Source of the DNA: an uncultured Lentisphaerales bacterium
GTDB taxonomy: Bacteria; Verrucomicrobiota; Lentisphaeria; JABSQK01; UBA12247
Length of the DNA stretch: 64,000 bases
Direction of reading: 5' to 3'
Assembly (NCBI GenBank): GCA_943788985.1
Contig: CALSSJ010000011.1
Coordinates: 96,001-160,000, forward strand
The notes beneath the pieces are model-generated. The model was given only the letters and a program-made list of their open reading frames with translations. It was not told the origin of the DNA and ran no database searches. This document shows positions 41,801-62,029 of this stretch, in pieces. Within the stretch, counting starts at the first letter, position 1. Every line of letters begins with the position of its first letter. A program made the position numbers and the translations under genes.

Positions 41801-42030
41801 TGAACCGTCTGCAAGGCATGCGTAAGGACGCAGGTCTTCAGGTAGACGACCGCATTGTCGTGTGTTATGAGGCGCCCGCCGCGATTTCCACCGCCATCGA
41901 GCAGTACGGCACGTATATTTCTGATGAAGTCCTCGCCACATCGTTGCGCTCCGAGCCGACGTCCGGCGTGGACATCGTGGATATCAACGGCCATGCCTGC
42001 ACGTTTGCGATAGTCAAGGAGGCTGGCTGA
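38827..42030 (+). CDS. ileS: Isoleucine--tRNA ligase (type 2, IleRS2)
   Basis: DGPPFATGLPHYGH, GWDCHGLP, DWAISRNRYWG, KMSKR; IleRS2-type C-terminus. Confidence 0.97.
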   Translation: MHFEPVRKADFPTEEQRVLAFWREQDIFAKTMAARSGGPEFVFYDGPPFATGLPHYGHLLAGAIKDVIPRYQTMQGKFVDRVFGWDCHGLPVENEMEKELQINSKHEIESYGVDRFNEACRGIVLKYTSEWEQVVERMGRWVDFDRGYRTMDLSYMESIWWVFKQLWDKDLIYEGDKIMWYCPRCATPLSNFEVNQGYRDTKDPAITVRFKLNGSGNRYIIAWTTTPWTLPANFALAVGEDIDYVEVEDGDDTLILAEARMGAYYPKEQPTVIRTFKGAELVGTSYAPILPFFPQHREDAYRVIAADFVTTGDGAGVVHIAPGFGEDDNRVGKENGLPVHCPLDDEGRYTAVVHDFAGRFVKDCDADIIQRLREEGSLVRKTTVSHSYPHCWRCEAPLLNRSIPTWFVRVEKIKDRMVAANQQIQWVPGHLKDGRFGKWLENARDWAISRNRYWGCPLPIWHDRESGQIEVFGSVAELEARSGQTITDIHKHFVDPIELPGTDGVTLRRVPQVLDCWFESGSMPYAQKHYPFENEGWVEDHLPADFIAEGLDQTRGWFYTLVVLGAALFDRPPFRNVIVNGLILAEDGAKMSKRLRNYPDPMEIMNKYGADAMRLYLLSSQVVRGENLRFSEKRHMVTDQATGKEIQTPDGVQETMRAVLLPLWNSYSFFITYANVDGWDPRSALDVANSAPKADLDRWILARLNSMVTQVTDRLDAYDLQGAGLSFSGFVGDLTNWYIRRSRRRFWKSQDDSDKHEAYSTLYHVLVTFCQAAAPLTPFMTETIYRNLRRPFMTAGESDAESVHLCDFPKPNPALADETLERRMGRAITAVSLGRFLRTQATIKVRQPLAESVLLSLDPETRADLEAIRPLVAEELNVKSVRVDANEATLVDLSAKANFKRLGKRLQKRMKHAAGAIAGLDDTALTQLQLGETLTIELADGGDAVEITIEDVEIRRTEREGIAVANEGDITVALDLQLDDGLVREGLAREIVNRLQGMRKDAGLQVDDRIVVCYEAPAAISTAIEQYGTYISDEVLATSLRSEPTSGVDIVDINGHACTFAIVKEAG

Positions 42031-42035
42031 TACCC

Positions 42036-43292
42036 GTGACTGAACCTTGTCCAAAGTGTAACGCTCCTCTCACCATCGAGGCAGGCGCCTTGGAGCTGAC
42101 CTGCGAGGCATGTGGTACTGTGATTGAGCTCGACTTCGGAACAGGCGACGAAGAGTGCGAAGATGCGGAAACACAGGTGGATCACGAGCCAAACCCGAAG
42201 AATGACACCTCCTCGCGAGACTTGCACGCCTTTGCAGAAGCATCCGAGTTCGAATTCGAAGTAAACTCGTTTGCAGACCTTGTCCGCTCGAAAAAGGAAG
42301 GGCCAGCCGCAGACGTCAGCTTTCGCAGTATGACCGGTGGCCGTGTTGTGGCTGGTCAGCCCATTCGTGATATCAAAATTGCCAAACCCGTGAAAGCGGG
42401 AGTGATGGGCACGGGTTCTCACCGGGTGAACCGTGAGGACTTCCCGACTCAGGATTCGGTCACGACAGATATGCTCGATCGCTCACGGCTGGAAGCAGAC
42501 GAACTGGCCAAAGAACGTGCGGCGCTTGGGGCGGCGCGCGAGGAAGCAGGGAAATTGCGAGAGGCGATTGAAGCAGAGAAGGCTGACCTGGAGCGGCAGC
42601 GAGAAGAGCACAGTCTGCAGATCAAGCGCATCCAAAACGAGGCGCTTTCGGCGGTCGAGAAGGAAAGACATTTCGCCGAAGAATTTGAGCGTAAAGCCGA
42701 AGCTTTGGCAGAGAATGGAGACCAGAAGCTCAGGGCTGCGCAGGAGCGGGCAGAGCAATTGGCGAAGCGTGAGGCTGAGGAAAAAGCGCGGCATGATGCT
42801 CTGGTGAAAGAAAAGAGGCATGCGATTAAGGCCATCAAAAAGAAGATCATTGAGGTGGCCGAGCACGAAAAGAAGGTTGCTGACGAGGCGAGTCGCAAAG
42901 CTGCCGAAGAAGATCGCAAGCAAGGTGAATATGAGGCGATGCTGGAACGAGCCGCCGACAAGACTCGGGCTGAGGTGGACGCTGCGGCAGAGGAAAAGAA
43001 GAAAGCGTTGAAGGCGGCGAAGATTGACGCCGCGAAGAAAGAGGCTCGCGCCAGGCTCTTGGAGAAGAAGAAAGACCAAGCGCGCAAGGTGATAGCGAAG
43101 CAGAAGGAAGAGGAAGTTAAACGGCGTGAAGACGCGATCACCAGGGCGAAAGGGGAAGCTTTGATTAGGCAGAAAGAAGAGGCAGAGAAGAAACGCAACA
43201 AGGCCATTTCCGTAGGCGTGAATCAGGATGTAGACGACGAAATCCGCCGCATGGAGCAAGAGGCAATGGATGAGATTGGTGGTGACCGGTGA
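42036..43292 (+). CDS. Zn-ribbon plus long coiled-coil protein
   Basis: CPKC...CEAC at N-terminus; E/K/A-rich heptad region. Confidence 0.75.
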   Translation: MTEPCPKCNAPLTIEAGALELTCEACGTVIELDFGTGDEECEDAETQVDHEPNPKNDTSSRDLHAFAEASEFEFEVNSFADLVRSKKEGPAADVSFRSMTGGRVVAGQPIRDIKIAKPVKAGVMGTGSHRVNREDFPTQDSVTTDMLDRSRLEADELAKERAALGAAREEAGKLREAIEAEKADLERQREEHSLQIKRIQNEALSAVEKERHFAEEFERKAEALAENGDQKLRAAQERAEQLAKREAEEKARHDALVKEKRHAIKAIKKKIIEVAEHEKKVADEASRKAAEEDRKQGEYEAMLERAADKTRAEVDAAAEEKKKALKAAKIDAAKKEARARLLEKKKDQARKVIAKQKEEEVKRREDAITRAKGEALIRQKEEAEKKRNKAISVGVNQDVDDEIRRMEQEAMDEIGGDR

Positions 43293-44797
43293 GTGGCGAA
43301 GCGAAGCCAGACAACGGTGAGGACAAGCCCACAAGCGGCGCTTCTTTACATCCTTCTGGTGGAGAAACTAAGGCCACTGAAGGCAAGCAGCCTGCTGACA
43401 CGTCTGCGAATCCCGCAGAGAAGGCAGCGGAAAATCCCGTAGCGGATAAGAAGGCCGCTGAGGACGAGAAGCCTGCTGACACGTCTGCGAATCCCGCGGA
43501 GAAGGCAGCGGAAAATCCCGTAGCGGATAAGAAGGCCGCTGAGGACGAGAAGCCTGCTGACACGTCTGCGAATCCCGCGGAGAAGGCAGCGGAAAATCCC
43601 GTAGCGGATGCCAAGGAAATCGCGGGCGAGAAGGCTGGCGAGAATGCCGAGATAAAGACAGCGGAGAAGTCGAAGCATCCCGAAAAACTGGATCCGCTGG
43701 CCGAAATTGAGCGGCAGGTAGAGGCAGAGCTGGCGGCGAAGAAAGCCAAGGATTCCGGTGTCGAGGTGCCACCCAGCGCAGAGGACGTACACAAGTCAAT
43801 TGAAGCAGAGCTAAACGCTGAGCTTGAGGCCGCGGCCGCCGCTCGGCGCACGCCCAAAGAGACTGAGAAGAAGACAGTCGAAGCTGGAACTGACTCGAAG
43901 GCCACCGCCAGCAAGGGGGCCGAGAAAGATGGCAAGCCGGCCGTTGGAAAGAACAAGCCAGCCGCTGGAAAAGGAAAGCCCGGTGCCGCTAAGAGCAAGC
44001 CAGGCACTGGAAAGGGCAAGCCAAAAGGTGCCAAGGACAAAGCCGAAGGCGGCAAGGCAGTGTCGCGCAAGAGCGGAGGTGCGCTAGCGAAGCGCAGGCC
44101 CGCGAGTGCTAAGACTCCTGAACAGGAAGCTGAGGAAGCTCGCAACAAGCAGATCGCCAGCAAGCAGGCCGAGATTACCCAGCAGATGAAGAGGAAGCAG
44201 CTAATCGTTTACGGTGTAATTACGCTGCTGACCGCTGTGATTGGCTACGTAATTCTGGGCGGGGACTCCAAGCCCGCCGCCGTCTCGTCACCGCCCCCGC
44301 AGCAGAGGCCTGCGGCGGCTCCGAAGGCCACGCAGAACGCGAGTAAAGATGCTCCCACACCGGCAGCCCAAGAGGCGGATTCGCTCCCTAAGCCAGCTGC
44401 TGCAACCAATTACAAGGTTAAACGCGTACTTCGAGCACTTGAAAAGAAGGCCGGGACGAAATTGCGATCGCAGGACTATATCGGGGCAATTAGCGTCTAT
44501 CGAGATGCCACGACCGCGACGCCAGAGTTGAAGGCGGACTGCGATAAAAGGATCGCCTTCATTGTCGAGAATAATCTTGAAGGCAGCGATCCGCTGCCAC
44601 TTATGGCAAAATGGGATGCCCTCAAGGACCAGGCCCGGGTGCATATCGCCTCAGAGAAGCCGGAGGATCTGCTCGTCGCAATCGGCTTGTTCAAAGCATT
44701 TGGCGAAGAGCATCCGTTGTTTGCCATGAAGGCGACAGAAAACGCGGGCAAGCTCGGGCAGCATTACTTCAAGGTCACCGGCGAGTTTCCGAAGTGA
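43289..44797 (+). CDS. Single-TM protein with disordered repeat-rich N-terminus
   Basis: GTGA overlap with upstream gene; TM LIVYGVITLLTAVIGYVIL; helical C-terminal domain. Confidence 0.75.
   Translation: MSGEAKPDNGEDKPTSGASLHPSGGETKATEGKQPADTSANPAEKAAENPVADKKAAEDEKPADTSANPAEKAAENPVADKKAAEDEKPADTSANPAEKAAENPVADAKEIAGEKAGENAEIKTAEKSKHPEKLDPLAEIERQVEAELAAKKAKDSGVEVPPSAEDVHKSIEAELNAELEAAAAARRTPKETEKKTVEAGTDSKATASKGAEKDGKPAVGKNKPAAGKGKPGAAKSKPGTGKGKPKGAKDKAEGGKAVSRKSGGALAKRRPASAKTPEQEAEEARNKQIASKQAEITQQMKRKQLIVYGVITLLTAVIGYVILGGDSKPAAVSSPPPQQRPAAAPKATQNASKDAPTPAAQEADSLPKPAAATNYKVKRVLRALEKKAGTKLRSQDYIGAISVYRDATTATPELKADCDKRIAFIVENNLEGSDPLPLMAKWDALKDQARVHIASEKPEDLLVAIGLFKAFGEEHPLFAMKATENAGKLGQHYFKVTGEFPK
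43389..43609. repeat. 81-bp tandem repeat (about 2.7 copies) encoding PADTSANPAEKAAENPVADKKAAEDEK
   Basis: Units start at 43389, 43470 and 43551. Confidence 0.95.
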
Positions 44798-46001: not shown

Positions 46002-46266
46002 GCCCCCGCTTTTGCGAACAAGTGGCACCCCTCTTCCTGCCGAGCTTTGCTCGGTTCGCCGTTAATCCATCAATTGTCCCAAAAGGATTAACCTAAGCCA
46101 GTCCATTCAGGGTGGTTCCAGCTCTCCTGCTGTGGCACTTTCTAATCGTCGCTGGACACATATACGGCCAGATGTGAGTTTTTTGTGGGTCACTCATGTT
46201 GCGCGCTTTGCCTCAGACACTACCGTGTATCCTCCATTTTTCTATACGAGCTTGCCAGAGGTTCTT

Positions 46267-47886
46267 ATGTATCGTTCAGCCGTACTGGTAGCGCTTGCTC
46301 TATGCTTGCCGCTGCCATCACTCTTCGCCAAGTCCGTGGCCGCATTCAAACGTCAGGGGCGGGGAATTCATGAAATCGTAGCGCTTGTCATCATTGGCGA
46401 TCGCTCCGTCGTCCAGGATCTGATGATCTGGGAAGACCTGCAAGCTGACGTGCTCAGCGCTCCGGTCTCAAAGCCAGACATTGAGACGATCGGCAAGACG
46501 ATCCATGGCTGGGTGACCGCACAAGGTTATATCTTCGCGACGGTACAGCATCGGGAAAAAGGGCTGGAGGATGGCTATCTCGCCTATACCGTCAGAGTTG
46601 GCAACCCCGGTGAGATCAGTGTGGTGGGGAACAAGTACTACTCTGCCGACCAGGTCATCAAGAATGTGGGCTTGACGTCCAACAGCAAGTTCGACTTCCG
46701 GTCGTTGCATGAAGATCTGTTTGCGCTGAATACCGAGCCATCTGCCACGGTCGATACCTCGATCGCGCCCAAAGACGAGGTGAAGCTAGCGGTCACAGAC
46801 GAGCTGCTGGTTCATGGCTCGCTGACGCTCAGCAATACGGGCTCACCTTTCGTCGGGGACTGGCGCCTCTGCAGTACGCTGGAACACCTTAATCTTACAA
46901 AACACGATGACATCCTCACTGCGGAGTGGCTCACCAATCCCGAGAACCTGGACGAAGTAAACGCTTTCACCGGCAGATACTATCGGCCTCTCGGCCCGAA
47001 GAACAACGTCACGTTCCACGCTGGCTGGAGCGAAACCGGGTTTAATGTGCTCGAGTTTGATATCCGCGGTCACGGGCGCTTCCTTGGGGCGCACTTCAAC
47101 CGCGTGGTTTACAGTAGCCCAAGGCACACGCTCGACGTGTCCGCAGGCTGGACCTACAAGCAGAGCGAGACGCAGATCGGCTTTGCCAACTCTAACCTCT
47201 ACGCGTCCGTGCTGCGTTTGAGCATGCCCAACGTGACGATTGGTTTCTCAGACAAGGTCTTTGATAGCCTAGGCGGCCGCACTTTCGCCTCCCTTGGTAT
47301 GCTCCGGAACTTCGCCGGCCACTTCGGTGCCTCAGGCATGGATGCTATCCGTCGGAGGTCCGCCAACGCAGACGGTAATCTGACCATCACTAAGTTTCGC
47401 CTGGCACGCTTTCAACGACTCTGCAAGGGGGTGACCTTGGTCGGGAAGATTGACTCTCAGTACACCAATGACTCGCTGGATCCTGTTTTGCAGAAACGCC
47501 TTGGCGGTGCGGACAGCGTGCGTGGATATAGCGAAAGTGAATTCAGCGGCGATAGTGGTTTCAACGGTACCTTGGAGTTGCGCAGCCCGTTGTTCAGCAA
47601 CTTCATCCCGCAACTTTCGCGCACTGAAGAGAAAATCGGAAGTGACCCGGATCATTGGAGCGTGCACCGCCTGCAAGCGATTGGCTTCTATGACTTCGGG
47701 CATATCCACCGGAATTATCGCTTTGCGGGATTAGGCGAGGACGACTCAGCATCTAGTCTGGGGCTGGGGGTTCGCTTCAGGATCTCTCCATACTCACAGC
47801 TGAAGTGCGACTACGGAGTGCCGCTGATTTCCACCGAGAGCAGCCGCGATGGTCGCGGTCATTTGTCCCTCAGTCTGCAGTTCTAA
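46267..47886 (+). CDS. ShlB/FhaC/HecB (TpsB) outer-membrane transporter
   Basis: Signal peptide from ATG 46267, POTRA-like region, GGADSVRGY motif, C-terminal Phe. Confidence 0.85.
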   Translation: MYRSAVLVALALCLPLPSLFAKSVAAFKRQGRGIHEIVALVIIGDRSVVQDLMIWEDLQADVLSAPVSKPDIETIGKTIHGWVTAQGYIFATVQHREKGLEDGYLAYTVRVGNPGEISVVGNKYYSADQVIKNVGLTSNSKFDFRSLHEDLFALNTEPSATVDTSIAPKDEVKLAVTDELLVHGSLTLSNTGSPFVGDWRLCSTLEHLNLTKHDDILTAEWLTNPENLDEVNAFTGRYYRPLGPKNNVTFHAGWSETGFNVLEFDIRGHGRFLGAHFNRVVYSSPRHTLDVSAGWTYKQSETQIGFANSNLYASVLRLSMPNVTIGFSDKVFDSLGGRTFASLGMLRNFAGHFGASGMDAIRRRSANADGNLTITKFRLARFQRLCKGVTLVGKIDSQYTNDSLDPVLQKRLGGADSVRGYSESEFSGDSGFNGTLELRSPLFSNFIPQLSRTEEKIGSDPDHWSVHRLQAIGFYDFGHIHRNYRFAGLGEDDSASSLGLGVRFRISPYSQLKCDYGVPLISTESSRDGRGHLSLSLQF

Positions 47887-48277: not shown

Positions 48278-51200
48278 CTAGACGGGACGCACGACGAAGA
48301 GCAGGTCTCCTGAGCTCACGGCCTGACCCGAAGGAGCAGCAATGCGGACTACCTGGAATTTTTTATCCGGATCATAGATCACTTCATCGGAGCGATTATA
48401 GTCGTTGAGCGTGATGGGACGAAAGACCTTCATGGCTTCGAGCAGGCACACGGTCTGGTCCGTCGTGACGACGTCTCCCGGTTCTACAAACTGAGGATCG
48501 CTGGGAGAAGCTTGGGTGTAGAATATGCCGGTACCAGAGGCCACGACTTTCAATTCATCCGTACCATCGATGCGCAGGGATTCGGCATCAAAGCCACCCT
48601 TGATGTCGCCGGCTGCTGCTTCGATCTCCGCACAGAGTTCGTTGCAGTCAATGCGCTTGAAGAATGCCGGCAGATAGCGCGTGTCGTAATCGCCAGCTAG
48701 GAAGACCTCGTCCTGAAGGACCCGGCAGACCAGTGGGATGTTGGTGCAGATCCCGCAGATTTTTACGGATTGGAGATAGCTGAGCAGTTTTGCGACGGCA
48801 TCGTCGCGGTCTTTTCCTTTGGCGATGATCTGGGCGATCATGCTGTCGTAATATGGCGGAATCTGCTTTCCCGTGGCGGCCATGGTAATGATGTCGACGC
48901 GGTCGTCTTCGGGAAACACGCACTCGGTGATTTCACCGGGGTGTGGTTCGAAGCTGACGTCACCATTGGCATCTACGACAGCTTTTTCGGCATTGACGCG
49001 AGCTTCGATCGCATAGCCAATTTCCTTGGGCTCAATCGCAGAGATCGAACGTCTTGCGGCGATATCAAATTGGCTGGTGACAATGTCCACATCGGAGACA
49101 ATTTCAGTCACGGGATGTTCGACCTGCAGGCGGGTATTCATCTCCATGAAGTAGGCTTCGCCAGACTCCAGGTCGAAGATGTACTCGACAGTGCCGGCAC
49201 CGATATAGTCGATGTCGTCTGCGATCGCGGCAGCGTTCTTGAACATCTGCTGCTTGAGTTTCTCGGGCAGCATCGTGGAGCTAGACTCTTCAAGAATTTT
49301 CTGGTTATTGCGCTGTACGGAGCAATCACGCAGCCCCAATACCTTGGTGGTGCCGTGGCCGTCACGCAGGATTTGGATCTCTACATGACGCAGGGAGACG
49401 ATGCATTTCTCGATATAGACATCGCTGTTGCCGAAGGCGCTTCGGGCTTCGGCTGAGATCTTGAGAAAAGACTCTTCAAGGAGGGCAGGGTCCTCGACGA
49501 TCTGAATCCCCTTTCCGCCACCGCCGTGGACGGCTTTCAGGATGATGGGGTAGTCAATGTTGTCGCAGATGTCTTTGGCCGCGGTCGCCTTGGTCACGAT
49601 ACCGTGGCTCCCGGGGACCACAGGAATTTTGAGCCGCAGGGCAGTGTTGATGGCGTTGGACTTGTTGCCCATCAACTGCATGCTGCGAGCGCTTGGCCCG
49701 AGGAAGTTGATGCCGTGGGCATGGCACATGGCGGAGAAATGCGGGTTCTCAGAGAGAAAGCCAATGCCGGGGTGAAGCGAATCGCACTGCTCGCGCTCGG
49801 CAATACGGACAACGCTGCCGGCGTTGAGATAGCTCTCATCCGAGGTGTTGCCACCGAGGCAGACTAGGGTGTCGTTGTCGCCGAGCATTTCTGCGGGCAC
49901 GGAATCCATATCCGCATCTGATTGGACGAGGACCACCTGAATGTCATTCTTCTGTGCGACGCGCACAAGCTTGACTGCGGTACACCCTCGGGCGTGTATC
50001 AAGACGCGCTTGACCGGCCGGAGCAGGTCCATCGAGTGGGTCATGGTGGCCATTTCCTGCTCTTCGGGCTCACTGCCGATATCGTCAAGGACTCCTTCCT
50101 TCAGGATGCGCATCAGGACGTTGGTCACAGACTCTTCGGCAATCGGGATCGCGCGATCGATTTCGCGGAGCTTGTCGTCCAAGTCGTCGACGAAGGGATG
50201 CCGGACGAGGCCTTGCATAGCACCCGGTGTCTCGGACAGATAGTTCGAGAGCGTAGAGGTGCTGGGCAGGTAGGCCGGAACCACGATTTGGCCGGCAAAT
50301 GGCATATTTGTGCCGGAAAAATAGTAGGTCTGTGCCAGTGGGTGGGTGACAAAGCTCGCCTGCGCGCCACCGGTACAGTCGCCAAACCCGAAGATGATGA
50401 TCGGCAGGTTATTATCCCGCACGAACCGCGTGATTCGGTCGTTTAGGATGGCCATCGAAAAGAGTGACCCTGCTCCTTCCTTGGTCTGCATACCACCGGA
50501 TGAGACGAAAGCGACCACGGCGTGTCGTTTGCGTGCGCAGGTGACGAGCAAGCGACAAAATTTCTCGCAGCTGGCCATATCGAAGGCACCAGCTTGAAAG
50601 TCGAGATTGGAAATGGCGACGCCAACTTTGCGCCGGAGTGGGCCCTTTAGCTGGGCGATTCCAGTGACTAGACCGCATGGCTTGATGTCACGGGACAGCG
50701 CTTGCTCGATAGACAGGCGAAAACCGGGGAACTTAACCGGATCGGCGGTCATTAGGCTGGCGTCGGTTTCTGCGAATGTGGAGAAGAAGGTTTCCTGGAT
50801 GGAGCTGACATTGCTGACGCGCTTCTTTTTGACCCGCTGCAGAAGATCATGAATGAGGATATCTTGGTAGGCTATGGCCAAGCGATTCCAAAAATCCTTC
50901 ATACCCAGATCACGAGGGGTGATGCGCCCCAAATATTCGCGACCGGCAATTTCGCATTCGTAGTACTCAGGCAGCAGGTGCTCGAAGGTAAAGGTGATGA
51001 TCGCAAACAGTGGTTCGGGTATGCGCGGGAATACGACTTTCTTCCAATCTTCTACGGACTTCAAGATACGCCCGCGCTGAGAATGGTGGATGAAATGATT
51101 CAGCCACAGATAGAATTGGTCTTTGAGCTGGTTCTCAATGCGCCGGCTGCCCTCGGTCGCAGGTTGCTTGGCAGCGAGTTCCTTGGCTGCTTTCTCGAGC

Positions 51201-52825
51201 GGCTCTTCGATCAGGCGGCTGATGGAGTCGCGCGAGATCACGTTCTCGTCCTTCACTTCACGCGCAATGGCGATCTGATTGTGGATGATGTTGTCGTAGA
51301 TAAGGTCGAAGATCAGCACATTCTGACACTCTTCGATGAAGCCGTCGCGAAGCTCATCGTGCAGCAGGAGGTCTAGGACCGTGGCGTTGTCGCCGGTGCG
51401 TGCCTTGCGTCCTGGGTTAGAGCGCAGATGATCAATCAGCAGCAACAGGCTGCTGTGGGCACCGGACTTCCAGAGACTGTAGAGGTAAAAGATGACTTGC
51501 AGATAGAGATCGTTCCGCGCCTGCATGAACTTGGTGGACGGATTGCCGCGAAGCAGCTTCATCAGCCGGCCGCGCTCGGCACCCAGCGCATGCCGACGAT
51601 CCATGAATACTTTCCAAGCCTTACTCAGGTGATCATCGTAGCGAATCTCGAGAGGGTTCTCGACCCACTGCTGGAAGGCGTTAGCGTGCTCCATGCGGCG
51701 TCTTTCTGAGAGTTCGCCCTGGGGCACTTCTACGGTTGTGAGCCGGCCGTAGCTCTCGATTGTTGTTGATTGAATGCGCTGGCGCAGGCCGAGGTAGCGC
51801 AGGTAGCGGTAGGTGGATCCAAAGACGCCGAACTGGCTCGGGTTGCGCGGGCGCAACATGCCGGACTGTCGCTCAAACTGTGAGAGTGCGTCGCCGGGCT
51901 CGAGGAAGCGATAGACGCTGCGCGAGTAATGGTCAAAGATCTCCGGACGCTCGCTGACGAATAGGCCAGCGGTCTCTTCGAGGGAGGCGATGCCGCTAGC
52001 GATCGCATCTGTGAGATTTCCTTCGTTCTCTTTCTCGCCGGGGACGTAATCGATAATGCCGTCTACGTAGCCCTGCTTATACAGCTCGTAGGATGAGACG
52101 CCGACGTACTTGGCGCATTCCTGCCATGACAAGTCGTACTTGCGGGCGATGCTTGCCATTCCCGGTGGCTGAATCGTGTTAAACACGCCGTCGCGGACTG
52201 TCAGTAGCAGATTTGTGGTGGCAAGTGGGATTGCGCCGCCAGAATATCCGGCGCCAATCACGATCCCGATTGTTGGGACGTGTAAGAGCGCCATTTCGGC
52301 GATCAGCCGTGAAATCGCGTGTGCTTGATTATCGCGATTGGCCTGGTCACCTGCGTCTGCCCCGGGGGTGTCAATGAGCGTGATCACTGGAAGCGAGAAC
52401 TCGGCAAACTTCTGCACCAGTTCCACGGCTTGGAGGTGGTGAGAGGGGAGCCAGACGCCGTTGTTGGCGGTTCGCTCCTGCCCCAGCACGCCAACTCGCC
52501 GCGGGCTGCCATTGAATAAAATTTCGACCTCGGCTGCGTAAAGCGGGCCATCAATGGTCTCGCGCAGGATCGTGCCAAGGCGCTTTACTGTGGCTTTGGC
52601 CCCTGGTCTGTTCTTCTGTTCAGAAGGCGTGACTGAGCGTGCAATGTAGGCGTCTACAGGCAGCGCTTGTAGCGACTTCACTTGGGCGTGAATGGTTCTC
52701 GCTGGGAGCACGCCCCGCAAGCGTCTCGAGGCTGTCGTGTGGAGGCGGGGGAAAAATGCAGAATCGTTGGATTCCTGCTCCGCCATCTGGAAAAGTTGAT
52801 CAAGCCCGCTCGTTCTCTTGGCCAT
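48278..52825 (-). CDS. Single-chain biotin-dependent acyl-CoA carboxylase (AccA-AccD-AccC-AccB-like fusion)
   Basis: IDTPGA/GYSGGA (CTalpha), SSGGMQTKEG/TGG (CTbeta), HPGIGFLSEN/GGGGKG/RDCSVQR/EMNTRLQVEH (BC), EAMKV (biotin carrier). Confidence 0.92.
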   Translation of the reverse strand: MAKRTSGLDQLFQMAEQESNDSAFFPRLHTTASRRLRGVLPARTIHAQVKSLQALPVDAYIARSVTPSEQKNRPGAKATVKRLGTILRETIDGPLYAAEVEILFNGSPRRVGVLGQERTANNGVWLPSHHLQAVELVQKFAEFSLPVITLIDTPGADAGDQANRDNQAHAISRLIAEMALLHVPTIGIVIGAGYSGGAIPLATTNLLLTVRDGVFNTIQPPGMASIARKYDLSWQECAKYVGVSSYELYKQGYVDGIIDYVPGEKENEGNLTDAIASGIASLEETAGLFVSERPEIFDHYSRSVYRFLEPGDALSQFERQSGMLRPRNPSQFGVFGSTYRYLRYLGLRQRIQSTTIESYGRLTTVEVPQGELSERRRMEHANAFQQWVENPLEIRYDDHLSKAWKVFMDRRHALGAERGRLMKLLRGNPSTKFMQARNDLYLQVIFYLYSLWKSGAHSSLLLLIDHLRSNPGRKARTGDNATVLDLLLHDELRDGFIEECQNVLIFDLIYDNIIHNQIAIAREVKDENVISRDSISRLIEEPLEKAAKELAAKQPATEGSRRIENQLKDQFYLWLNHFIHHSQRGRILKSVEDWKKVVFPRIPEPLFAIITFTFEHLLPEYYECEIAGREYLGRITPRDLGMKDFWNRLAIAYQDILIHDLLQRVKKKRVSNVSSIQETFFSTFAETDASLMTADPVKFPGFRLSIEQALSRDIKPCGLVTGIAQLKGPLRRKVGVAISNLDFQAGAFDMASCEKFCRLLVTCARKRHAVVAFVSSGGMQTKEGAGSLFSMAILNDRITRFVRDNNLPIIIFGFGDCTGGAQASFVTHPLAQTYYFSGTNMPFAGQIVVPAYLPSTSTLSNYLSETPGAMQGLVRHPFVDDLDDKLREIDRAIPIAEESVTNVLMRILKEGVLDDIGSEPEEQEMATMTHSMDLLRPVKRVLIHARGCTAVKLVRVAQKNDIQVVLVQSDADMDSVPAEMLGDNDTLVCLGGNTSDESYLNAGSVVRIAEREQCDSLHPGIGFLSENPHFSAMCHAHGINFLGPSARSMQLMGNKSNAINTALRLKIPVVPGSHGIVTKATAAKDICDNIDYPIILKAVHGGGGKGIQIVEDPALLEESFLKISAEARSAFGNSDVYIEKCIVSLRHVEIQILRDGHGTTKVLGLRDCSVQRNNQKILEESSSTMLPEKLKQQMFKNAAAIADDIDYIGAGTVEYIFDLESGEAYFMEMNTRLQVEHPVTEIVSDVDIVTSQFDIAARRSISAIEPKEIGYAIEARVNAEKAVVDANGDVSFEPHPGEITECVFPEDDRVDIITMAATGKQIPPYYDSMIAQIIAKGKDRDDAVAKLLSYLQSVKICGICTNIPLVCRVLQDEVFLAGDYDTRYLPAFFKRIDCNELCAEIEAAAGDIKGGFDAESLRIDGTDELKVVASGTGIFYTQASPSDPQFVEPGDVVTTDQTVCLLEAMKVFRPITLNDYNRSDEVIYDPDKKFQVVRIAAPSGQAVSSGDLLFVVRPV

Positions 52826-53001
52826 TGTCTTCCCGCATCAAATTAAAGGTCTGGTGGGCGGGGTCGTCCCGCACCGAAAGGGTACCGCGCAGCAACGGCT
52901 TTGCAAACCTGAACGGAGGCTTCTGGGGCTCGTCTTGGTCATTGACTGGGCTAAGTTTCCATCCCTTACACTAGAGAGCCGCATTTGCACAGCAGAGCAA
53001 G

Positions 53002-53466
53002 ATGTAGGACGACTTCGACCTACAAAAGGGCCCATCAGTGGTTCGGTGCGGCCGCGAATGGGGAAGCGTGGAGCCTGCTTGAGAAGGCGGAGTTGGCCGC
53101 TGAGGAGGCTGATCTGCTGCTGCGGGCGGCTTTCGCTTCCCCTACCATTGGTATCAGGTGCGCCCTGACTTGAATCGCTCACGCGCCGATTGCCAGGTCG
53201 CATTTGCCTGTGCGCGGGTTGGACTTGGGGGCGAGGCGCTGCACTTCGCGGCGCGTGGTTTCTTCCGTACTTGCGAGCACGAGGTGGCGAAATGGGAACA
53301 GGCCTTTGCCCATCTGGCGGTCTCCGCCGCTGCGCATGCTGCAGACGTATCGGGGGTGCATCGCGACCATTACGATCGCGCTGTTGAGGTGTGGGCACAG
53401 CTGAGCAGCGAGAATAAGACGCTGTTTGACGTCTCGCTCGCAGTGGTTTCCAAGCCACATGCCTGA
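53002..53466 (+). CDS. Conserved helical hypothetical protein, frameshifted
   Basis: AHQWFGAAANGEAWSLLE...AFAS / YHWYQV...NRSRA fragments join across indels at about 53030 and 53140; start uncertain. Confidence 0.5.
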
Positions 53467-53542
53467 ATGTCAGTCTACGTGGCAACTGGTGCGGGCAGGC
53501 GGCATAGTCTGAGCTTCGTTCTGTCAATTTCAGGAGTAAGCT

Positions 53543-54925
53543 ATGCCAGGCCAGCCCAACATTGTCGTGTTCTTTACCGATCAGCAGCGCTGGGATTGTA
53601 GTGGGTTGCACGGCAATCCTCTGGATCTGATGCCCAACTTCGACCGTCTGGCACAGGCAGGGACGCACGTCGCAAACTTCTTCACGTGTCAGCCGGTCTG
53701 TGGGCCAGCGCGGGCCTGCATTCAAACCGGGCAGTATGCCACGGTGAACGGATCGTATCGTAATGGCATTCCGCTGACCAAGTCGGTAAAGCCTTTGGCG
53801 GAGCATTTCAAAGACGCTGGCTATCGCACCGGATATATTGGCAAGTGGCACCTGGCGCAAACTGGCCACGGTGCGGTCAATGAGGAGGATCGTGGCGGAT
53901 ATCGTGACTGGCTCGCCGCGAACGTTCTCGAATTCACCTCGCACGACTACCACACCGCCCTCTATAATGAGGACAATGCTGAGGTAGAGCTGCCTGGCTA
54001 TCGCTCCGATGCCATGGTGGATGCCGGAATTCGGTACATCAATGAGCACAAAGAGGAACCATTTTTTCTGTTCATGAGCTTTATTGAGCCGCACCACCAG
54101 AATCATGTGGACGACTACCCTGCACCAGATGGATACCGCGAGCGCTACGCAAATCGCTGGGTGCCGCCAGATCTCGCGGCGCTCGGGGGCAGCACCCAAC
54201 GCCACCTGGGCGGATACTATGGCATGGTCAAGCGTCTTGATGAAGGGCTGGGGCGGATTACGGACGCGCTTAAGTCCCTGCAGCTGGATGAAAACACCAT
54301 CGTCGTATTCTTTAGTGATCACGGGTGTCACTTCAAGACCCGAAATGCCGAGTATAAGCGCTCCTGTCATGAAAGCTCGCTCCGAGTGCCCTGTATGTTT
54401 CACGGCGGTCCATTCGCCGGTGGCGGTCGTCGTGACGAGTTGGTCAGCCTGATTGACCTCCCGCCAACACTGCTGGACGTTGCTGGAATAGACGTGCCTG
54501 ATTCGATGCACGGGCAATCACTGCTTTCGCGGGTAGAGCGCACCGGGGCGGACTGGCCGGACCACGTCTACTTTGAGACCAGTGAGGCAGAGACTGGGCG
54601 CGGAGTTCGCACAGAACGCTGGAAGTATCACGTGCGCGCTCCAGAGGATGCCGCCGTCGTCGATGGCAAGTCGGACGTGTATGAGGAGTCGTTTCTCTAC
54701 GACCTGCAGGCCGATCCGTATGAGTTGGCAAACTTGGTCGGAATCGAGTCCTACGGTGGGATTAGGTCTGGCTTGCGCGAAAAGTTGATGGAGCGACTCG
54801 CGTTCGTGGGTGAAACGCCGGAGATTGCGCCGCCGCCGGGCACTCGCGGGGGGCAACGAATGGTTGCCGATAGTGAAGTTGCTTCGCTTGGGTTTTCACA
54901 CAATATTCCCGGGAGGTCGCGATGA
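53543..54925 (+). CDS. Sulfatase (Cys-type, formylglycine-dependent)
   Basis: PNIV.FFTDQ, CGPARA (CxPxR), GKWHL, SDHG, YDLQADPYE. Confidence 0.93.
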   Translation: MPGQPNIVVFFTDQQRWDCSGLHGNPLDLMPNFDRLAQAGTHVANFFTCQPVCGPARACIQTGQYATVNGSYRNGIPLTKSVKPLAEHFKDAGYRTGYIGKWHLAQTGHGAVNEEDRGGYRDWLAANVLEFTSHDYHTALYNEDNAEVELPGYRSDAMVDAGIRYINEHKEEPFFLFMSFIEPHHQNHVDDYPAPDGYRERYANRWVPPDLAALGGSTQRHLGGYYGMVKRLDEGLGRITDALKSLQLDENTIVVFFSDHGCHFKTRNAEYKRSCHESSLRVPCMFHGGPFAGGGRRDELVSLIDLPPTLLDVAGIDVPDSMHGQSLLSRVERTGADWPDHVYFETSEAETGRGVRTERWKYHVRAPEDAAVVDGKSDVYEESFLYDLQADPYELANLVGIESYGGIRSGLREKLMERLAFVGETPEIAPPPGTRGGQRMVADSEVASLGFSHNIPGRSR

Positions 54926-55602: not shown

Positions 55603-56389
55603 TTTTATCCAGCAGATTGCCCAAGAAGCGGGCGCTATGGCGCTTGCTTACCGCGCACGCCTCCATGCCGTGGCTGTGGATTATAAGTCAGTCCGCGATC
55701 TGGTGACTGAAGCCGATCGAGAGATTGAGCTCTATCTGCGCAAGCGCATTGCCGACCGCTATCCAGGTCACGGCATTCTCGGGGAGGAATTTGGGGCGAA
55801 GCAGGGCGATGCCTACCGCTGGGTGATTGACCCCATTGATGGGACAGGTTCGTTCGTGCACGGGCAGCCTACCTTCTCCGTCTCGATTGGCGTACAGCAT
55901 CACGGCGTGGGCGTTCTCGGCGCTGTCGCCGCCCCAGCGCTTGGGGAATTGTTCTTGGCCGAACAGGGAGCTGGTGCCTGGTGCAATGGCGCGAAAATCT
56001 CCTGCAGTACCGCTACAGAGCTGAATCGGTGCATTCTGGCTACGGGCTTTGCCTGTCTGCGCGATGGCGCGGCGCACAATAACCTCCCGTACTTGCATGC
56101 AATTCTGCCGCAGCTACAAGATATGCGCCGCTATGGCTCCGCGGCGATGGACTTGGCCTTTGTGGCTGCCGGGCGCGTGGACGGCTTCTGGGAGCTAAAC
56201 CTGCACGAGTATGACATCGCCGCTGGCGTGGTTCTGGTGCGAGAGGCTGGTGGAGTCGTTAGCGACTTCCATGGGCGGACAGACGACCTGCCTCATCGCG
56301 TCCTGGCGTGCAACGCTGAACTGCACGCCAAGATCGTTAGTCAGTTCGCAAAATTGGAGGATGCGCAGGATGCCGCGCTCGCAGAGTAG
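55595..56389 (+). CDS. suhB: Inositol monophosphatase family
   Basis: DLVTEAD, GEE, WVIDPIDGT, GSAAMD, YDIAAG. Confidence 0.88.
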   Translation: MLDFIQQIAQEAGAMALAYRARLHAVAVDYKSVRDLVTEADREIELYLRKRIADRYPGHGILGEEFGAKQGDAYRWVIDPIDGTGSFVHGQPTFSVSIGVQHHGVGVLGAVAAPALGELFLAEQGAGAWCNGAKISCSTATELNRCILATGFACLRDGAAHNNLPYLHAILPQLQDMRRYGSAAMDLAFVAAGRVDGFWELNLHEYDIAAGVVLVREAGGVVSDFHGRTDDLPHRVLACNAELHAKIVSQFAKLEDAQDAALAE

Positions 56390-57236
56390 TCCGCCTGGCA
56401 GGGGCAGAATCCGGCTGGCAAGGAAAAGATTTTTCTTTTTCTCACAATGTGGGTGGACAAGTTCAAGCTTCCTGCGTAGTTTACGCGCTTTCTCGTTTGG
56501 GCTGTGGGCACTTTTTGCCTGCTCGGATGAGGAATGCAACGCTAAGTTGCGTGAGGTCGAACTGGCTCGCGAACTGGCAGAGGAGGGAGCGCTAGCAGCA
56601 ACCGCAGCGCTGATTCGGACCGAGCAAACGCTCGACACAATCCGGAGCCGACTCGCCACCGCACAGGCCGAACTCACGGAGCTCCGCGATCAGCTTGATG
56701 TCATTCGTGTGCAAATGGCAAGCCTGCTCGTGAACGAAGAAGTAGTGTCTGAAGCGCAGGCGCTGGTTCGCTTTGTCAAAGAAGCTGATCAGGCGAAAGC
56801 GGCGTTTCATCAGGCCTACGAGGACTTACTGGCCTGTAGGCGGCACTGGGAAGCCCTCCTAGATTCGCTCGCGGGCCCGGATCGGAAAATTTATCAAGAA
56901 CAGCTTGATGCAAAACTGGACCTAGTTTTTGTCAGTTTGCAGCGGGCTGAACAGTATTTCAATAGTAAGGAGAGCGGCAGACACGGAGCAGCAACGGACG
57001 ACGGATTGCGCGTCTTGAACGTAAATGATGATCTTGAGGTGGTGGCGGTGAATGCCGGCCACAAACAAGGGCTTCGCATTGGACAGGTTCTATCTGTCGC
57101 GGAGGGCAGGGCCAAGGGCGCTGTACTTCGTGTGATTGAGATCAGACCTTCAGTCAGTGCGGCCATCATACAATCAGGACGGCTTAGGCATCTCGCACCC
57201 GGAACCCCATTGATTCGCGTCGTAGTGCCGGACTAG
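56211..57236 (+). CDS. Coiled-coil protein with C-terminal beta domain; true start uncertain (probably near 56450)
   Basis: Possible lipobox LFAC; coiled coil; VAVNAG...GLRIG motif. Confidence 0.55.
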   Translation: MTSPLAWFWCERLVESLATSMGGQTTCLIASWRATLNCTPRSLVSSQNWRMRRMPRSQSSPPGRGRIRLARKRFFFFSQCGWTSSSFLRSLRAFSFGLWALFACSDEECNAKLREVELARELAEEGALAATAALIRTEQTLDTIRSRLATAQAELTELRDQLDVIRVQMASLLVNEEVVSEAQALVRFVKEADQAKAAFHQAYEDLLACRRHWEALLDSLAGPDRKIYQEQLDAKLDLVFVSLQRAEQYFNSKESGRHGAATDDGLRVLNVNDDLEVVAVNAGHKQGLRIGQVLSVAEGRAKGAVLRVIEIRPSVSAAIIQSGRLRHLAPGTPLIRVVVPD

Positions 57237-57252
57237 TTAGGAGAAGGATAGA

Positions 57253-57711
57253 ATGGAAAAACGCGCTATTTCAAAATACCGTCGAATCTCGGCGTTTAAA
57301 GCACGTGATATTACTCGCCTTATTCAAGGCAAGTCTATCGACGAAGCGCTACGCATGCTTGCGTTTGCTCCGCAGAAGGCTGCCCGGCTGGTGGAGAAAA
57401 CACTACGCTCTGCAATAGCAAATTATGAGCAAGCGGTGGACGGCGATGTAGACCGCTCGACACTGCTTGTCAAGGAAGCACTGATCGGCGAAGGCCCGTC
57501 AATGAAGCGTATTCGCCCTAAGGCTCGGGGGATGGCTGGCCGCATTATTAAGCGATCCAGTCACATCCGGATTACAGTCTGGGACGGAGAGCAAGCGAAA
57601 GACCTGGTTGCGGACTACTTCGACGATGACGAAGAAGAGACCCTCGCCGGCGATGAAAATGCGGAGACGGAAGCTTCCGTCGCCGATGACGATCAAGAAA
57701 ACGAAGGATAG
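57253..57711 (+). CDS. rplV: 50S ribosomal protein L22 with acidic C-terminal extension
   Basis: ISAFKAR, SAIAN, GPSMKR..PKARG, KRSSHI. Confidence 0.96.
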   Translation: MEKRAISKYRRISAFKARDITRLIQGKSIDEALRMLAFAPQKAARLVEKTLRSAIANYEQAVDGDVDRSTLLVKEALIGEGPSMKRIRPKARGMAGRIIKRSSHIRITVWDGEQAKDLVADYFDDDEEETLAGDENAETEASVADDDQENEG

Positions 57712-57725
57712 GGAGGTAGCAGCCC

Positions 57726-58448
57726 GTGGGCCAAAAAGTAAATCCTATCGGTTTCCGCGTATCGGTAACCAAAGATTGGCGCAGTCGCTGGTTCGCTCGT
57801 AAGCGCGAGTTCGGTGACATGCTGCACGAGGACCTGAAGATGCGTCAGTTCGTGCAGACGCAGCTGTCTCAGGCAGCGGTGTCGCGGATCCAAATTGAAC
57901 GTTTCGCCAGCCGGATTCGTCTCACCATTCACACGGCTCGTCCGGGAATGGTGTTTGGACGGAAGCGCGCTGAATATGACGCGTTGAAGAATTCCCTGTT
58001 CAAGCTATTAGGCACGAAAGACAAGGACGTCTATGTCGACGTTGTCGAAGTGCGTTATCCTGAGCTTGAAGCACAACTCGTGGCCCAGAATGTGGCCATG
58101 CAGCTCGAACGTCGTGTCGGTTTTCGCCGGGCGATGAAGAAGGCGCTACAGACGAGCATGGATATGGGAGCAGTCGGAATCAAGATTCGTTGCGCAGGTC
58201 GCTTGGGCGGCGCGGAACTAGCTCGCACAGAAGAGTATCGCGATGGCAAAGTGCCATTGCATACCTTGCGTGCGGACGTGCAGTATGGCTTTTGTGAAAG
58301 CGTGACTACTGCCGGTTTGATTGGTGTAAAAGTATGGCTATGTCGGCCGGATAATATGGAGGAAAAGAACAATGCCTTTGATGCCAAAAAGGGTAAAGCA
58401 TCGCAAGGTTCAAAGAGGAAAAATTCGAGGCAACGCGACCAGCGGTAA
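57726..58448 (+). CDS. rpsC: 30S ribosomal protein S3
   Basis: [29 protein letters not shown]. Confidence 0.97.
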
Positions 58449-58785
58449 CGTCCTCAATTTTGGAGACTTTGGGTTGCAGGTTCTGGAGCGCGGCTTTATC
58501 ACAAACCGCCAGATTGAAGCTGCACGTATTGCGATTACGCGCCACATGCGCCGACGTGGTCAGGTCTGGATCCGGATGTTCCCGGACAAGCCGATTTCGA
58601 AAAAGCCACTTGAGACGCGTATGGGTAAGGGAAAGGGTAACACAGAGGCCTGGGTGGCTTGTGTGAAACCTGGCCGTGTTATCTTTGAAATTCGCGGTTG
58701 TTCCGAGACTGTGGCACGTGAAGCGCTCGCTTTGGGTGCTGCCAAACTGGGGCATCGTTGCAAAATGTTGTCGCGTGAGGGTTGA
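58372..58785 (+). CDS. rplP: 50S ribosomal protein L16
   Basis: [26 protein letters not shown]. Confidence 0.97.
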
Positions 58786-58788
58786 TCG

Positions 58789-58989
58789 ATGAAAGGTAGC
58801 GAAGTTGCAGAACTGACGGAGTTGGAACTGACGGCGCGTCTGGAGGAGACGCAGCGTGAGTTATTCAACCTTCGCGTCCAAGCCGCCATTGGTGCTTTGG
58901 AGAATACTGCTCGGGTACGAGCCCTTCGTCGTGATGTTGCGCGTCTGAGATCGGAAGAGACCAAGCGCAATAAGACGGCTGCGAACTAG
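58789..58989 (+). CDS. rpmC: 50S ribosomal protein L29
   Basis: ELFNLR, RRDVAR; synteny. Confidence 0.93.
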   Translation: MKGSEVAELTELELTARLEETQRELFNLRVQAAIGALENTARVRALRRDVARLRSEETKRNKTAAN

Positions 58990-59002
58990 GAGAAATGCTG
59001 AG

Positions 59003-59283
59003 ATGAGTGAAGCTACTGAAAAAAAGCGCGGCCTGCGTAAGCAGCGTACCGGCGTGGTCGTCAGTAATAAAGGGGATAAGACAATCGTCGTGCAAGTGAC
59101 ACGCCGTGCCGCGCATTCCGCTCTATAAAAAGGTGATCAGTCTGACCAAGAAATTTCATGCCCATGATGAAACCAATGACGCCAATATCGGCGACACGGT
59201 GACCATCGTGGAGGACACGTCCACTGAGCAAGCTTAAACGCTGGCGGATGACTGCAGTTGTTCGTCGCGCAGTGGAGGACTGA
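59003..59283 (+). CDS. rpsQ: 30S ribosomal protein S17 (two apparent +1 indels)
   Basis: [14 protein letters not shown] / HPLYKK...AHDE / RPLSKLKRW in three successive frames. Confidence 0.9.
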
Positions 59284-59286
59284 GCC

Positions 59287-59652
59287 ATGATTCAAATGCA
59301 GACCATAATGGACATCGCTGACAACTCTGGCGCACGCCGGGTGATGGCGATTACAGTCTTGGGGCAACAGCGCAAAGTCGCTCGCGTTGGTGATGTCGTG
59401 ACTGCGGCTGTCAAAGAAGCCTCTCCGAATGGAGCTGTCAAGAAGGGCGATGTCGTCCGTGTTGTAGTGGTTCGTACGCGCTCGGCAATTCGTCGCGAGG
59501 ACGGCTCGTACTTACGCTTCGACCGTAACGCGGGCGTTGTCATCGATGACGGTGGCAACCCACGCGGAACCCGTATTTTCGGGCCTGTGGCTCGTGAACT
59601 TCGGGATTCCAACTATATGCGTATCGTCTCGCTGGCGCCGGAGGTGCTGTGA
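59287..59652 (+). CDS. rplN: 50S ribosomal protein L14
   Basis: MIQ..T...[25 protein letters not shown]. Confidence 0.98.
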
Positions 59653-59916
59653 TGCGGCGGATATGGAAGGGTGACACCGTCGAGGTAATCAGCGGCCGTG
59701 CTGTTGGACAGACCGGCCATGTCCTCGTAGTGGATTACAAGAAGGAGCAAGTGATCGTGGAGGGAGTAAATACCCGCATGGTTGCTACTCGTCCTGGGTC
59801 CCAGTTCCCCCGGTGGGCTGATCGAGCGTGAGTGCCCGATCCACTTGTCGAACGTACTGGTGACGGTCGAATCCCCCGAGCACAAAAAAGAGTTGGAACG
59901 CAAGGGCTTGCTCTAA
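59652..59916 (+). CDS. rplX: 50S ribosomal protein L24 (apparent +1 indel)
   Basis: KGDTVEVISG, VIVEGVN / GGLIERECPIHLSNV. Confidence 0.9.
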
Positions 59917-59938
59917 GCCTGCTTGAGGAGACAAAACG

Positions 59939-60477
59939 ATGAGTGTATTACTTGAACAATATCGTTCGGAGATGATTCCGAAGCTGCAGGCCTCGCGCTC
60001 CTACGGGAACGTGATGCAGGTGCCGAAGCTTGAGAAAATCGTCCTGAACTGCGGAATCTCGTCACAGCGTGACCGCGACATGTTTGCGAATGCCCAGCTC
60101 GCGCTGAGTGACATTACTGGCCAGCGGCCGGTGATTACAAAGACACGCATGAACATCGCCAACTTTAAGCTCCGTGAGGGCATGAATGTCGGTGTGTGTG
60201 TCACGTTGCGTAAAGAACGCATGTACGACTTTTACTACCGGCTGACGCGCGTGGCTCTGCCGCGAGGTGCGTGACTTTCGCGGTGTGGGCAGCCAAGGCC
60301 TTTGACGGCCGCGGCAACTACAGCATGGGCTTGGAAGACGTGACCATTTTTACTGAAGTTAACCCCGATAAATTAAAGTACACGATCGGCATGAGCATCG
60401 CTATTGTGACAACTGCTGCGACCAACGAAGAAGGTCTGGAGTTGTTGACAATGCTTGGCATGCCGTTCGAGAAATAA
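59939..60477 (+). CDS. rplE: 50S ribosomal protein L5 (apparent +1 indels at about 60265 and 60288)
   Basis: [22 protein letters not shown] / FDGRGNY. Confidence 0.92.
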
Positions 60478-60490
60478 GGAGACCGGACCT

Positions 60491-60676
60491 GTGGCACGGA
60501 AAGCACTTGTCGCCAAAGCGAAGCGTAAGCCAAAATTCTCTACCCGTCAGTACAACCGCTGCCGCACCTGTGGTCGTGCCCGGGCGTATATCCGAAAGTT
60601 TCAAGTCTGCCGTATCTGCTTCCGCGAACTTGCCTCCCGTGGCGAGATTCCGGGTGTAGTCAAGGCGAGCTGGTAG
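60491..60676 (+). CDS. rpsN: 30S ribosomal protein S14 (Zn-binding type Z)
   Basis: GTG start; [24 protein letters not shown]. Confidence 0.95.
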
Positions 60677-60687
60677 GAGGAATAATT

Positions 60688-61080
60688 ATGATTAGCGATC
60701 CTATTGCAGACATGCTGACGCGAGTTCGCAACGCCTCTCGCGCCGCGCATTCCGTGGTCGAGATGCCGTCTTCCATCCTCAAAGTAGCGATTGCCGACAC
60801 GCTCAAGCGTGAAGGCTACATTCGTGGCTATGAAGTTTCGGAAGATGGTGCGAAGCGGACCTTGAAGGTAAGCCTGAAGTATTTTAAGGAAGAATCGGTC
60901 ATCGCTGGCATCGAGCGCGTCAGTCGCTCTTCTCAGCGTGTGTATGTGGGCCATGAATCTGTTCCTCGGACGCTTGGCGGTCTTGGAATTGTGATTCTCT
61001 CGACGGCTCAGGGCGTGATTACCGGCAAAGATGCCAGGAATCGCGGCGTGGGCGGCGAAGTCCTCTGCCGAGTCTGGTAG
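60688..61080 (+). CDS. rpsH: 30S ribosomal protein S8
   Basis: DPIADMLTRVRN, GLGIVILST, GGEVLC. Confidence 0.97.
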   Translation: MISDPIADMLTRVRNASRAAHSVVEMPSSILKVAIADTLKREGYIRGYEVSEDGAKRTLKVSLKYFKEESVIAGIERVSRSSQRVYVGHESVPRTLGGLGIVILSTAQGVITGKDARNRGVGGEVLCRVW

Positions 61081-61096
61081 AATAGGGGGATAAAAT

Positions 61097-61628: not shown

Positions 61629-61646
61629 TAAGAGTAGGAGCAAGAT

Positions 61647-62010: not shown

Positions 62011-62029
62011 GGATTAAACGTAGCAAACT

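Follow-up and report, generated by a model that had tools for sequence, protein, structure and literature searches.

A probable AccS-type single-chain acetyl-CoA carboxylase in an uncultured Lentisphaerales bacterium

The window, a 64,000-nucleotide stretch of DNA from an uncultured Lentisphaerales bacterium, encodes on its minus strand a protein of 1515 amino acids (48278..52825, stop codon included) that, with a probability of about 90%, is an AccS-type single-chain acetyl-CoA carboxylase (ACC). The frame starts with ATG and is uninterrupted, and M1 is invariant in an alignment of 12 family sequences (mean column identity 62%), which supports the choice of the start codon. The protein aligns from end to end with the chain 9kkm_A of the Shewanella oneidensis enzyme (phmmer search of the PDB, 1721.6 bits, query residues 8-1515, chain residues 16-1515). 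The architecture is known, and the window gene is an ordinary new copy of it in another bacterial lineage.

Domain order of the single chain

Pfam and NCBIfam matches and the comparison with PDB chains all yield the same order within the single chain: carboxyltransferase (CT) alpha, middle domain, CT beta, biotin carboxylase (BC) and biotin carboxyl carrier (BCCP). A previous reading of the sequence alone had placed the four ACC components in one 1515-aa ORF and had taken the product for a one-polypeptide biotin-dependent acyl-CoA carboxylase. The domain matches agree with both statements, and the order and content of the domains that it gave stand, with boundaries slightly off.

The CT alpha-like half (residues 116-280; 51986..52480, minus strand) is matched over its whole length by NCBIfam AccA_sub (1.6e-34), by Pfam ACCA at residues 120-268 (2.8e-29), and by the AccA chains 2f9i_A and 2f9y_A of the PDB. 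The CT beta-like half (residues 682-895; 50141..50782, minus strand) is delineated by the accD model TIGR00515 together with AccD and PCC-beta chains. TIGR00515 matches residues 682-827 (5.4e-11) with its positions 70-214, the first ~70 positions of the model finding no counterpart in this half, and the AccD chain 2f9i_B is matched at 4.7e-13. Of the PCC-beta chains, 1vrg_A aligns through its C-terminal half (328-478) with the AccA-like part (107-253), and 9wkr_G through its N-terminal half (76-248) with the AccD-like part (720-895), in line with the previous observation that the CT halves are reversed compared with fused CTs.

Between the two CT halves lies an all-helical middle domain that appears specific to AccS (residues about 300-680; 50786..51928, minus strand), for which no Pfam or NCBIfam model was matched. 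AlphaFold2 predicts nothing but helices for residues 289-700 (mean pLDDT 73.2, about 75-95 over model residues ~85-385), in agreement with the earlier description of a helical region lacking a family assignment. In a fold search of the PDB, 9kkm_A was the sole hit to this model with E <= 0.001 (E 3.8e-18, TMq 0.63, 406 columns), the next one having an E of 0.07.

The BC (ATP-grasp) domain occupies residues 938-1388 (48662..50014, minus strand), being matched by NF006367 (4e-142), by Pfam Biotin_carb_N, CPSase_L_D2 and Biotin_carb_C, and by BC chains of known structure (best 2e-102). The BCCP domain follows at residues 1425-1512 (48290..48553, minus strand), with matches to TIGR00531 (5.5e-9 at 1426-1512) and Pfam Biotin_lipoyl (5.1e-6 at 1444-1472). 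The motifs EAMKV (1463-1467) and ARGCTA (945-950), both reported before, are present in the translation.

Conservation of key residues extends over all catalytic parts of the chain. In the 12-sequence alignment, both CT Gly-Gly pairs (G196-G197 in the AccA-like and G819-G820 in the AccD-like half) are invariant, as are the glycine-rich loop G1101-G1106 of BC, the BC residues K1055, K1097, H1147, K1176, E1214, E1228, N1230, R1232, E1236 and R1276, and E1463, A1464, M1465 and K1466 of BCCP. By comparison with the E. coli BC and CT, we take the invariant BC and CT residues to be catalytic, and K1466 (codon 48428..48430, minus strand) to be the site of biotin attachment, as is established for BCCP domains; its biotinylation is predicted from the conserved E-A-M-K.

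The same four catalytic modules make up the four-subunit ACC (E. coli; S. aureus CT, 2F9I/2F9Y), to whose AccA and AccD the CT halves correspond and with which the two-step chemistry is presumably shared. In contrast to that system, the window enzyme is one polypeptide, has a helical domain of ~380 amino acids between the CT halves, and shows no match to the N-terminal part of AccD. The protein falls outside the canonical multi-subunit ACC, with all four matches in a single ORF and all four NCBIfam equivalog cut-offs missed (accA 87.8 vs 319.3, accD 42.4 vs 317.45, accC 439.7 vs 626.5, BCCP 36.7 vs 115.2), and because every score is under its cut-off, these models do not specify the substrate. 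Eukaryotic ACC and LCC are likewise single-chain, multi-domain biotin carboxylases. In eukaryotic-type ACC and LCC, BC and BCCP come first and CT last, and within CT the AccD-like half precedes the AccA-like one, an order that is consistent with the PCC-beta alignments, whereas in the window protein the order is reversed. This difference had been pointed out before, and the Pfam and NCBIfam coordinates and the PDB chain matches bear it out; the LCC chain 4rcn_A matches the window protein weakly (E 3.2e-4).

Genomic context and probable substrate

In the assembly, which is 83.6% complete, the models for accA, accD, accC, BCCP and PF01039 match only the ORF 48278..52825, the remaining accC-model hits being weak and located in frames of 1088, 364 and 463 amino acids. 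The search for separate accABCD genes that the sequence-only reading had proposed found none in this assembly, although such genes may lie on DNA that was not assembled. The genome does encode fabD (329.9 bits) and birA (148.8 bits), both above cut-off. The product of 48278..52825 is most likely the housekeeping ACC of its host.

The alternative that survives best is a carboxylase of the AccS fold that would act mainly on propionyl-CoA or on longer or branched acyl-CoA, rather than on acetyl-CoA. The AccA and AccD equivalog scores far under the cut-off and the identity of just 52% to Shewanella AccS are compatible with such a preference. However, this is the sole carboxyltransferase gene found, with fabD and birA present, so that malonyl-CoA would lack a source; the CT halves fit AccA and AccD chains (5.6e-18 and 4.7e-13) much better than the beta chains of PCC, MCC and LCC (3e-6 or worse); and, within the order, the gene alternates cleanly with canonical accD and accC (see below). 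A substrate other than acetyl-CoA is therefore improbable.

As an AccS-type ACC, the protein would be biotinylated by BirA at K1466 in the C-terminal BCCP domain, and this biotin would be carboxylated in the BC domain at the expense of ATP and bicarbonate. [quoted passage not shown] The enzyme is most likely a homodimer, as in the solved Shewanella holoenzyme.

The gene is flanked by genes for a sulfatase (53543-54925, plus strand) and a ShlB-like protein (46132-47886, plus strand). The upstream gap of 717 bp contains small ORFs, none of which matched a family, and a scan of the region upstream of the gene found no sigma-70-like promoter sites, a result that is uninformative for this organism.

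Relation to the Shewanella enzyme

The PDB entries 9KKM and 9W4A, from S. oneidensis, contain the protein designated 'Acetyl-CoA carboxylase multifunctional enzyme AccADCB'; 9KKM, a cryo-EM structure titled 'holoenzyme dimer from Shewanella oneidensis', was released on 2025-11-19. Searches of the literature for the AccS cryo-EM work and for 'AccADCB' retrieved no paper on these two entries, the string 'accADCB' being encountered only as a gene list in PMC9803151. The enzyme itself, SO_0840, was named AccS in 2016, and PMC4793157 states that S. oneidensis has no AccABCD homologues and uses AccS instead. A genetic study followed in 2024, in which AccS was detected as a biotinylated band of ~170 kDa, and low expression of accS caused a growth defect that was rescued by E. 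coli accA/accD/accBC (PMC11602165). The passages covered of PMC4793157 and PMC11602165 report no activity assay with the purified enzyme.

The two proteins are of nearly the same length (1515 vs 1517 amino acids) and share the order of CT alpha, helical insert, CT beta, BC and BCCP, as well as ARGCTA, the A-M-K biotin site and the fold of the insert. In either organism, AccS stands in place of AccABCD (for Shewanella, PMC4793157). The differences lie in the sequence, with 52% identity (789/1526, 2% gaps) measured with the Shewanella algicola copy; in the phylum, the nearest labelled relatives of the window protein bearing the labels Planctomycetes, Verrucomicrobia or Lentisphaerae; in the stand-alone extra AccB, which PMC4793157 records for S. 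oneidensis and which was not found in the genome of the window; and in the neighbourhood. Shewanella accS is flanked by a divergent LysR-type accR, whereas none of the 22 flanking ORFs scanned here contains a LysR domain, and the gene has no AccR neighbour. Such a divergent AccR has been reported for Shewanella and some gammaproteobacteria and does not define the enzyme.

These comparisons leave very little room for the inference, drawn from the sequence alone, of a 'probably uncharacterised carboxylase class'. The domain order unlike that of eukaryotic ACC, LCC and PCC-beta type fusions and the insert without a Pfam or NCBIfam family did suggest novelty. The match to S. oneidensis AccS (9KKM, 9W4A) nevertheless runs from end to end, insert included, and that inference is wrong: S. 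oneidensis AccS is characterised and has this very domain order, a finding that by the inference's own account would speak against a new class. As the architecture has already been named, genetically studied and solved, the gene adds no further class of enzyme.

It is equally implausible that the fusion has decayed or lost its function, for example through inactivation of BC by ARGCTA in the place of NRGEIA. The N-terminal BC motif is indeed unlike that of classical BC, but the Shewanella enzyme (9kkm_A) has ARGCTA as well, the H-A-R-G-C..A positions are invariant in the 12 family sequences, the frame of 1515 codons is intact, all 120 relatives among the matches listed reach at least 1799 bits, and the 83.6% complete assembly yielded no further ACC. 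Since the motif is common to the Shewanella enzyme and invariant in the family, ARGCTA is, judging by the alignment, a trait of AccS that indicates neither an inactive enzyme nor an exceptional copy.

Distribution of AccS

The text of PMC11602165 confines AccS to Shewanella plus a small number of genera of gammaproteobacteria. It seems somewhat likelier than not that AccS is not so confined and represents a patchy, multi-phylum alternative ACC that displaced accABCD in whole lineages. In the order to which the window belongs, 9 of the 15 genomes carry a full-length AccS and none of these nine has accD or accC over the cut-off, whereas the other 6 lack AccS and have accD over the cut-off, 5 of them with accC over the cut-off as well. 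By family, three are AccS-only (9 genomes) and two canonical-only (6 genomes). In the sample of the phylum, AccS was found in only 2 of 151 genomes. This either-or pattern of families, combined with the rarity in the phylum, suggests that AccS was acquired horizontally, once or more, and that the four-gene system was lost thereafter. Relatives comprise at least 120 proteins, all of those listed at 1799 bits or more; with many full-length relatives outside the gammaproteobacteria, and with the either-or pattern, the distribution is wider and patchier than in the text of PMC11602165. It offers a natural case in which a fused enzyme has taken the place of an essential multi-subunit one.

A search of contigs for related loci returned 77, most of them of the AccC type because one of the patterns used, YFMEMNT, also fits ordinary BC genes; about ten (L012-L021) are of the AccS type, either full-length or cut by a contig end. 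An unrooted FastTree phylogeny, built from the N-terminal parts only and without an AU test, comprised 49 rows: the window protein, 35 of the 120 listed proteins (13 labelled and 22 hand-picked), 8 same-order loci and 5 labelled loci, with L016-L019 and L021 omitted as partial or mis-framed. Without a root and an AU test, the tree is not used to claim the number or the direction of transfers. The window protein clusters with two of the listed proteins, P0003 and P0004 (support 100), and the Shewanella and gammaproteobacterial rows form a separate group of 16 (support 99). Two same-order clades, f2 and f42, are placed apart from the clade of the window, the joining forks being weak or open. In public databases, ORFs of this kind go under 'ATP-grasp domain-containing protein' or 'carbamoyl-phosphate synthase large subunit', and they could be named AccS-type ACC.

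Domain architecture and the match to AccS

The gene at 48278..52825 (minus strand) is a single open frame of 1515 codons with an ATG start. Family scans place in its product, from the N-terminus, an AccA-like carboxyltransferase (CT) half (residues 116-280; NCBIfam AccA_sub, 1.6e-34; Pfam ACCA, 2.8e-29), a middle region without a Pfam or NCBIfam model match (residues about 300-680), an AccD-like CT half (residues 682-827; TIGR00515, 5.4e-11, model positions 70-214), a biotin carboxylase (BC; residues 938-1388; NF006367, 4e-142) and a biotin carboxyl carrier domain (BCCP; residues 1425-1512; TIGR00531, 5.5e-9; Biotin_lipoyl, 5.1e-6), with EAMKV at residues 1463-1467 of the translation. When PCC-beta chains from the PDB are aligned with the protein, their C-terminal half pairs with the AccA-like part and their N-terminal half with the AccD-like part, so that the CT halves are reversed relative to the usual fused form. 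Because frame, family scans and PCC-beta alignments agree, the description in the sequence-only reading, four acetyl-CoA carboxylase (ACC) components in one ORF with reversed CT halves, holds with slightly shifted limits.

The further proposal of an uncharacterised carboxylase class is not borne out, because the same domain order is found in AccS/AccADCB, the single-chain ACC of Shewanella oneidensis (SO_0840), which aligns over the full length. By far the top PDB match (phmmer, 1721.6 bits) is 9kkm_A (also 9w4a), a chain of 1517 aa labeled "Acetyl-CoA carboxylase multifunctional enzyme AccADCB" (9kkm release date in the Foldseek listing, 2025-11-19), with query residues 8-1515 aligned to 16-1515. 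The copy of Shewanella algicola (locus L015) is collinear end to end, with 52% identity (789/1526) and 2% gaps. According to PMC4793157, SO_0840 (1517 aa) was given the name AccS in 2016, and S. oneidensis lacks AccABCD homologs and uses AccS in their place. PMC11602165 (2024) describes accS as "a multiple-domain ACCase" with a domain order unlike that of eukaryotic ACC and assigns to AccS a biotinylated band near 170 kDa; Shewanella single-chain ACCs are mentioned also in PMC12362589. The gene in the window is, then, a fused, permuted ACC, a new copy of the known AccS/AccADCB kind and not a new class.

The BC motif ARGCTA (residues 945-950 of the translation) is a family trait, because it is also present in the Shewanella chain 9kkm_A, and H944, A945, R946, G947, C948 and A950 are invariant across 12 diverse family members. 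The mean column identity in this 12-sequence alignment is 62%. Its invariant columns also take in the EAMK site, the glycine loop and a number of other residues of BC, and the Gly-Gly pair of each CT half; we take the invariant BC and CT residues to be the catalytic ones from work on E. coli BC and CT.

The helical insert and relatives of the protein

A structure model of residues 289-700, built from a 12-sequence alignment (A2), consists of helices throughout. Its mean pLDDT is 73.2, with the confident part spanning roughly model residues 85-385 and low values towards each terminus. The model's sole significant PDB match in Foldseek is 9kkm_A (E 3.8e-18, TMq 0.63, 406 columns), the second-best having an E-value of 0.07, and because 9kkm_A alone is matched, the modeled insert is a family-specific domain already contained in the solved 9kkm structure.

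The protein search scored 7998 candidates, 2030 of them with E <= 0.001. The 120 matches listed are 1406-1664 aa long, score at least 1799 bits and are 54-80% identical to the query, except for its own cluster (P0002, 100%); source labels among them include Planctomycetes, Verrucomicrobia, Lentisphaerae, Desulfuromonadales, Moraxellaceae, Oceanospirillaceae, Motilimonas cestriensis and Oceanobacter kriegii. On titled genome contigs, AccS-type loci come from Shewanella abyssi, S. algicola, Pseudomonadales, Desulfuromonadales and an Acidobacteria MAG. In a FastTree tree of N-terminal parts (49 rows), the neighbors of the window's protein are two unlabeled database proteins (80% and 69% identical) and the Shewanella-type copies form a separate, well-supported group; the tree gives no resolved relations among the three AccS clades of the order to which the window's genome belongs.

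AccS and canonical ACC in the order, the phylum and the genome

The distribution was assessed with residues 1-700, the AccS-specific stretch, in 151 genomes of the phylum and 15 of the order, both samples including the window's own assembly (G000). Full-length AccS was matched in 2 of the 151 phylum genomes (G000 and G070, both of the same order) and an AccA-like part alone in 134 (around residues 46-361, the frame usually being ~330 aa long); 15 had no match at E <= 1e-10, 14 of these belonging to one genus. This genus (g31 of family f18), with neither an AccS nor an AccA-like match at that threshold, is represented by 14 genomes of 1.9-3.2 Mb that are 99-100% complete.

Within the order, 9 of the 15 genomes carry full-length AccS, although in one of them the contig stops inside the gene. 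The AccA-like match alone is seen in five, and one (G153, 92% complete) has no match to residues 1-700. In gene content, AccS and the four-subunit AccABCD replace each other within this one order, because accD is over the cut-off in exactly those six genomes that lack AccS. Five of these six also have accC over the cut-off; in the nine AccS genomes, the canonical accD and accC model matches are all below it, inside ~1520-aa frames, and an extra BC-bearing frame (1161 or 559 aa) is present in two.

In the G000 assembly (4.58 Mb, 48 contigs), the accA, accD, BCCP and Carboxyl_trans models have no match outside the accS ORF, and accC, which scores 443.6 bits on this ORF, has other matches of at most 63.4 bits (frames of 1088, 364 and 463 aa); hence the separate accABCD genes that the sequence-only reading had suggested looking for were not found in this 83.6% complete assembly, apart from these weak accC matches. 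Both fabD (329.9 bits) and birA (148.8 bits) are over the cut-off. On the simplest reading of these matches in an incomplete assembly, the gene would be the sole ACC and the source of malonyl-CoA for type II fatty-acid synthesis.

Gene neighborhood and other features of the window

The accS gene stands alone, convergent with a ShlB-like gene (46132-47886, plus strand) and separated by a 717-bp gap (52826-53542) from an upstream sulfatase gene on the opposite strand (53543-54925, plus). It differs from Shewanella accS in that no LysR-type AccR adjoins it in the scan of flanking ORFs. The small ORFs of the gap (53179-53460, minus; 52818-53168 and 53158-53466, plus) have no Pfam match, and a 559-aa ORF with a TTG start that overlaps the sulfatase gene (52838-54517, minus) matches no family and is probably not a real gene.

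Elsewhere, a 906-aa ORF (26726-29446, minus), coinciding with an AT-skew anomaly at 28001-30000 (-0.362), has a conserved-looking C-terminal part, preceded by tandem repeats of the 'KAPEQEPAAEQ' type and by long stretches of low complexity rich in Arg, Asn, Gly and Asp. A second anomaly (42001-44000, +0.359) holds two consecutive ORFs within 42036-44797 (plus), the first (418 aa) with a zinc ribbon at its N-terminus (a match to Zn_Ribbon_TF of 1.9e-5 that falls below the cut-off) followed by a long, helical-looking Lys/Glu/Ala-rich tail, and the next (502 aa) without a family match. Part of a ribosomal-protein cluster at 56211-63998 (plus; L22, S3, L16, S8, L18, S5, L15 and SecY) and dapA, dapB and ileS at 36.5-42 kb are ordinary housekeeping context.
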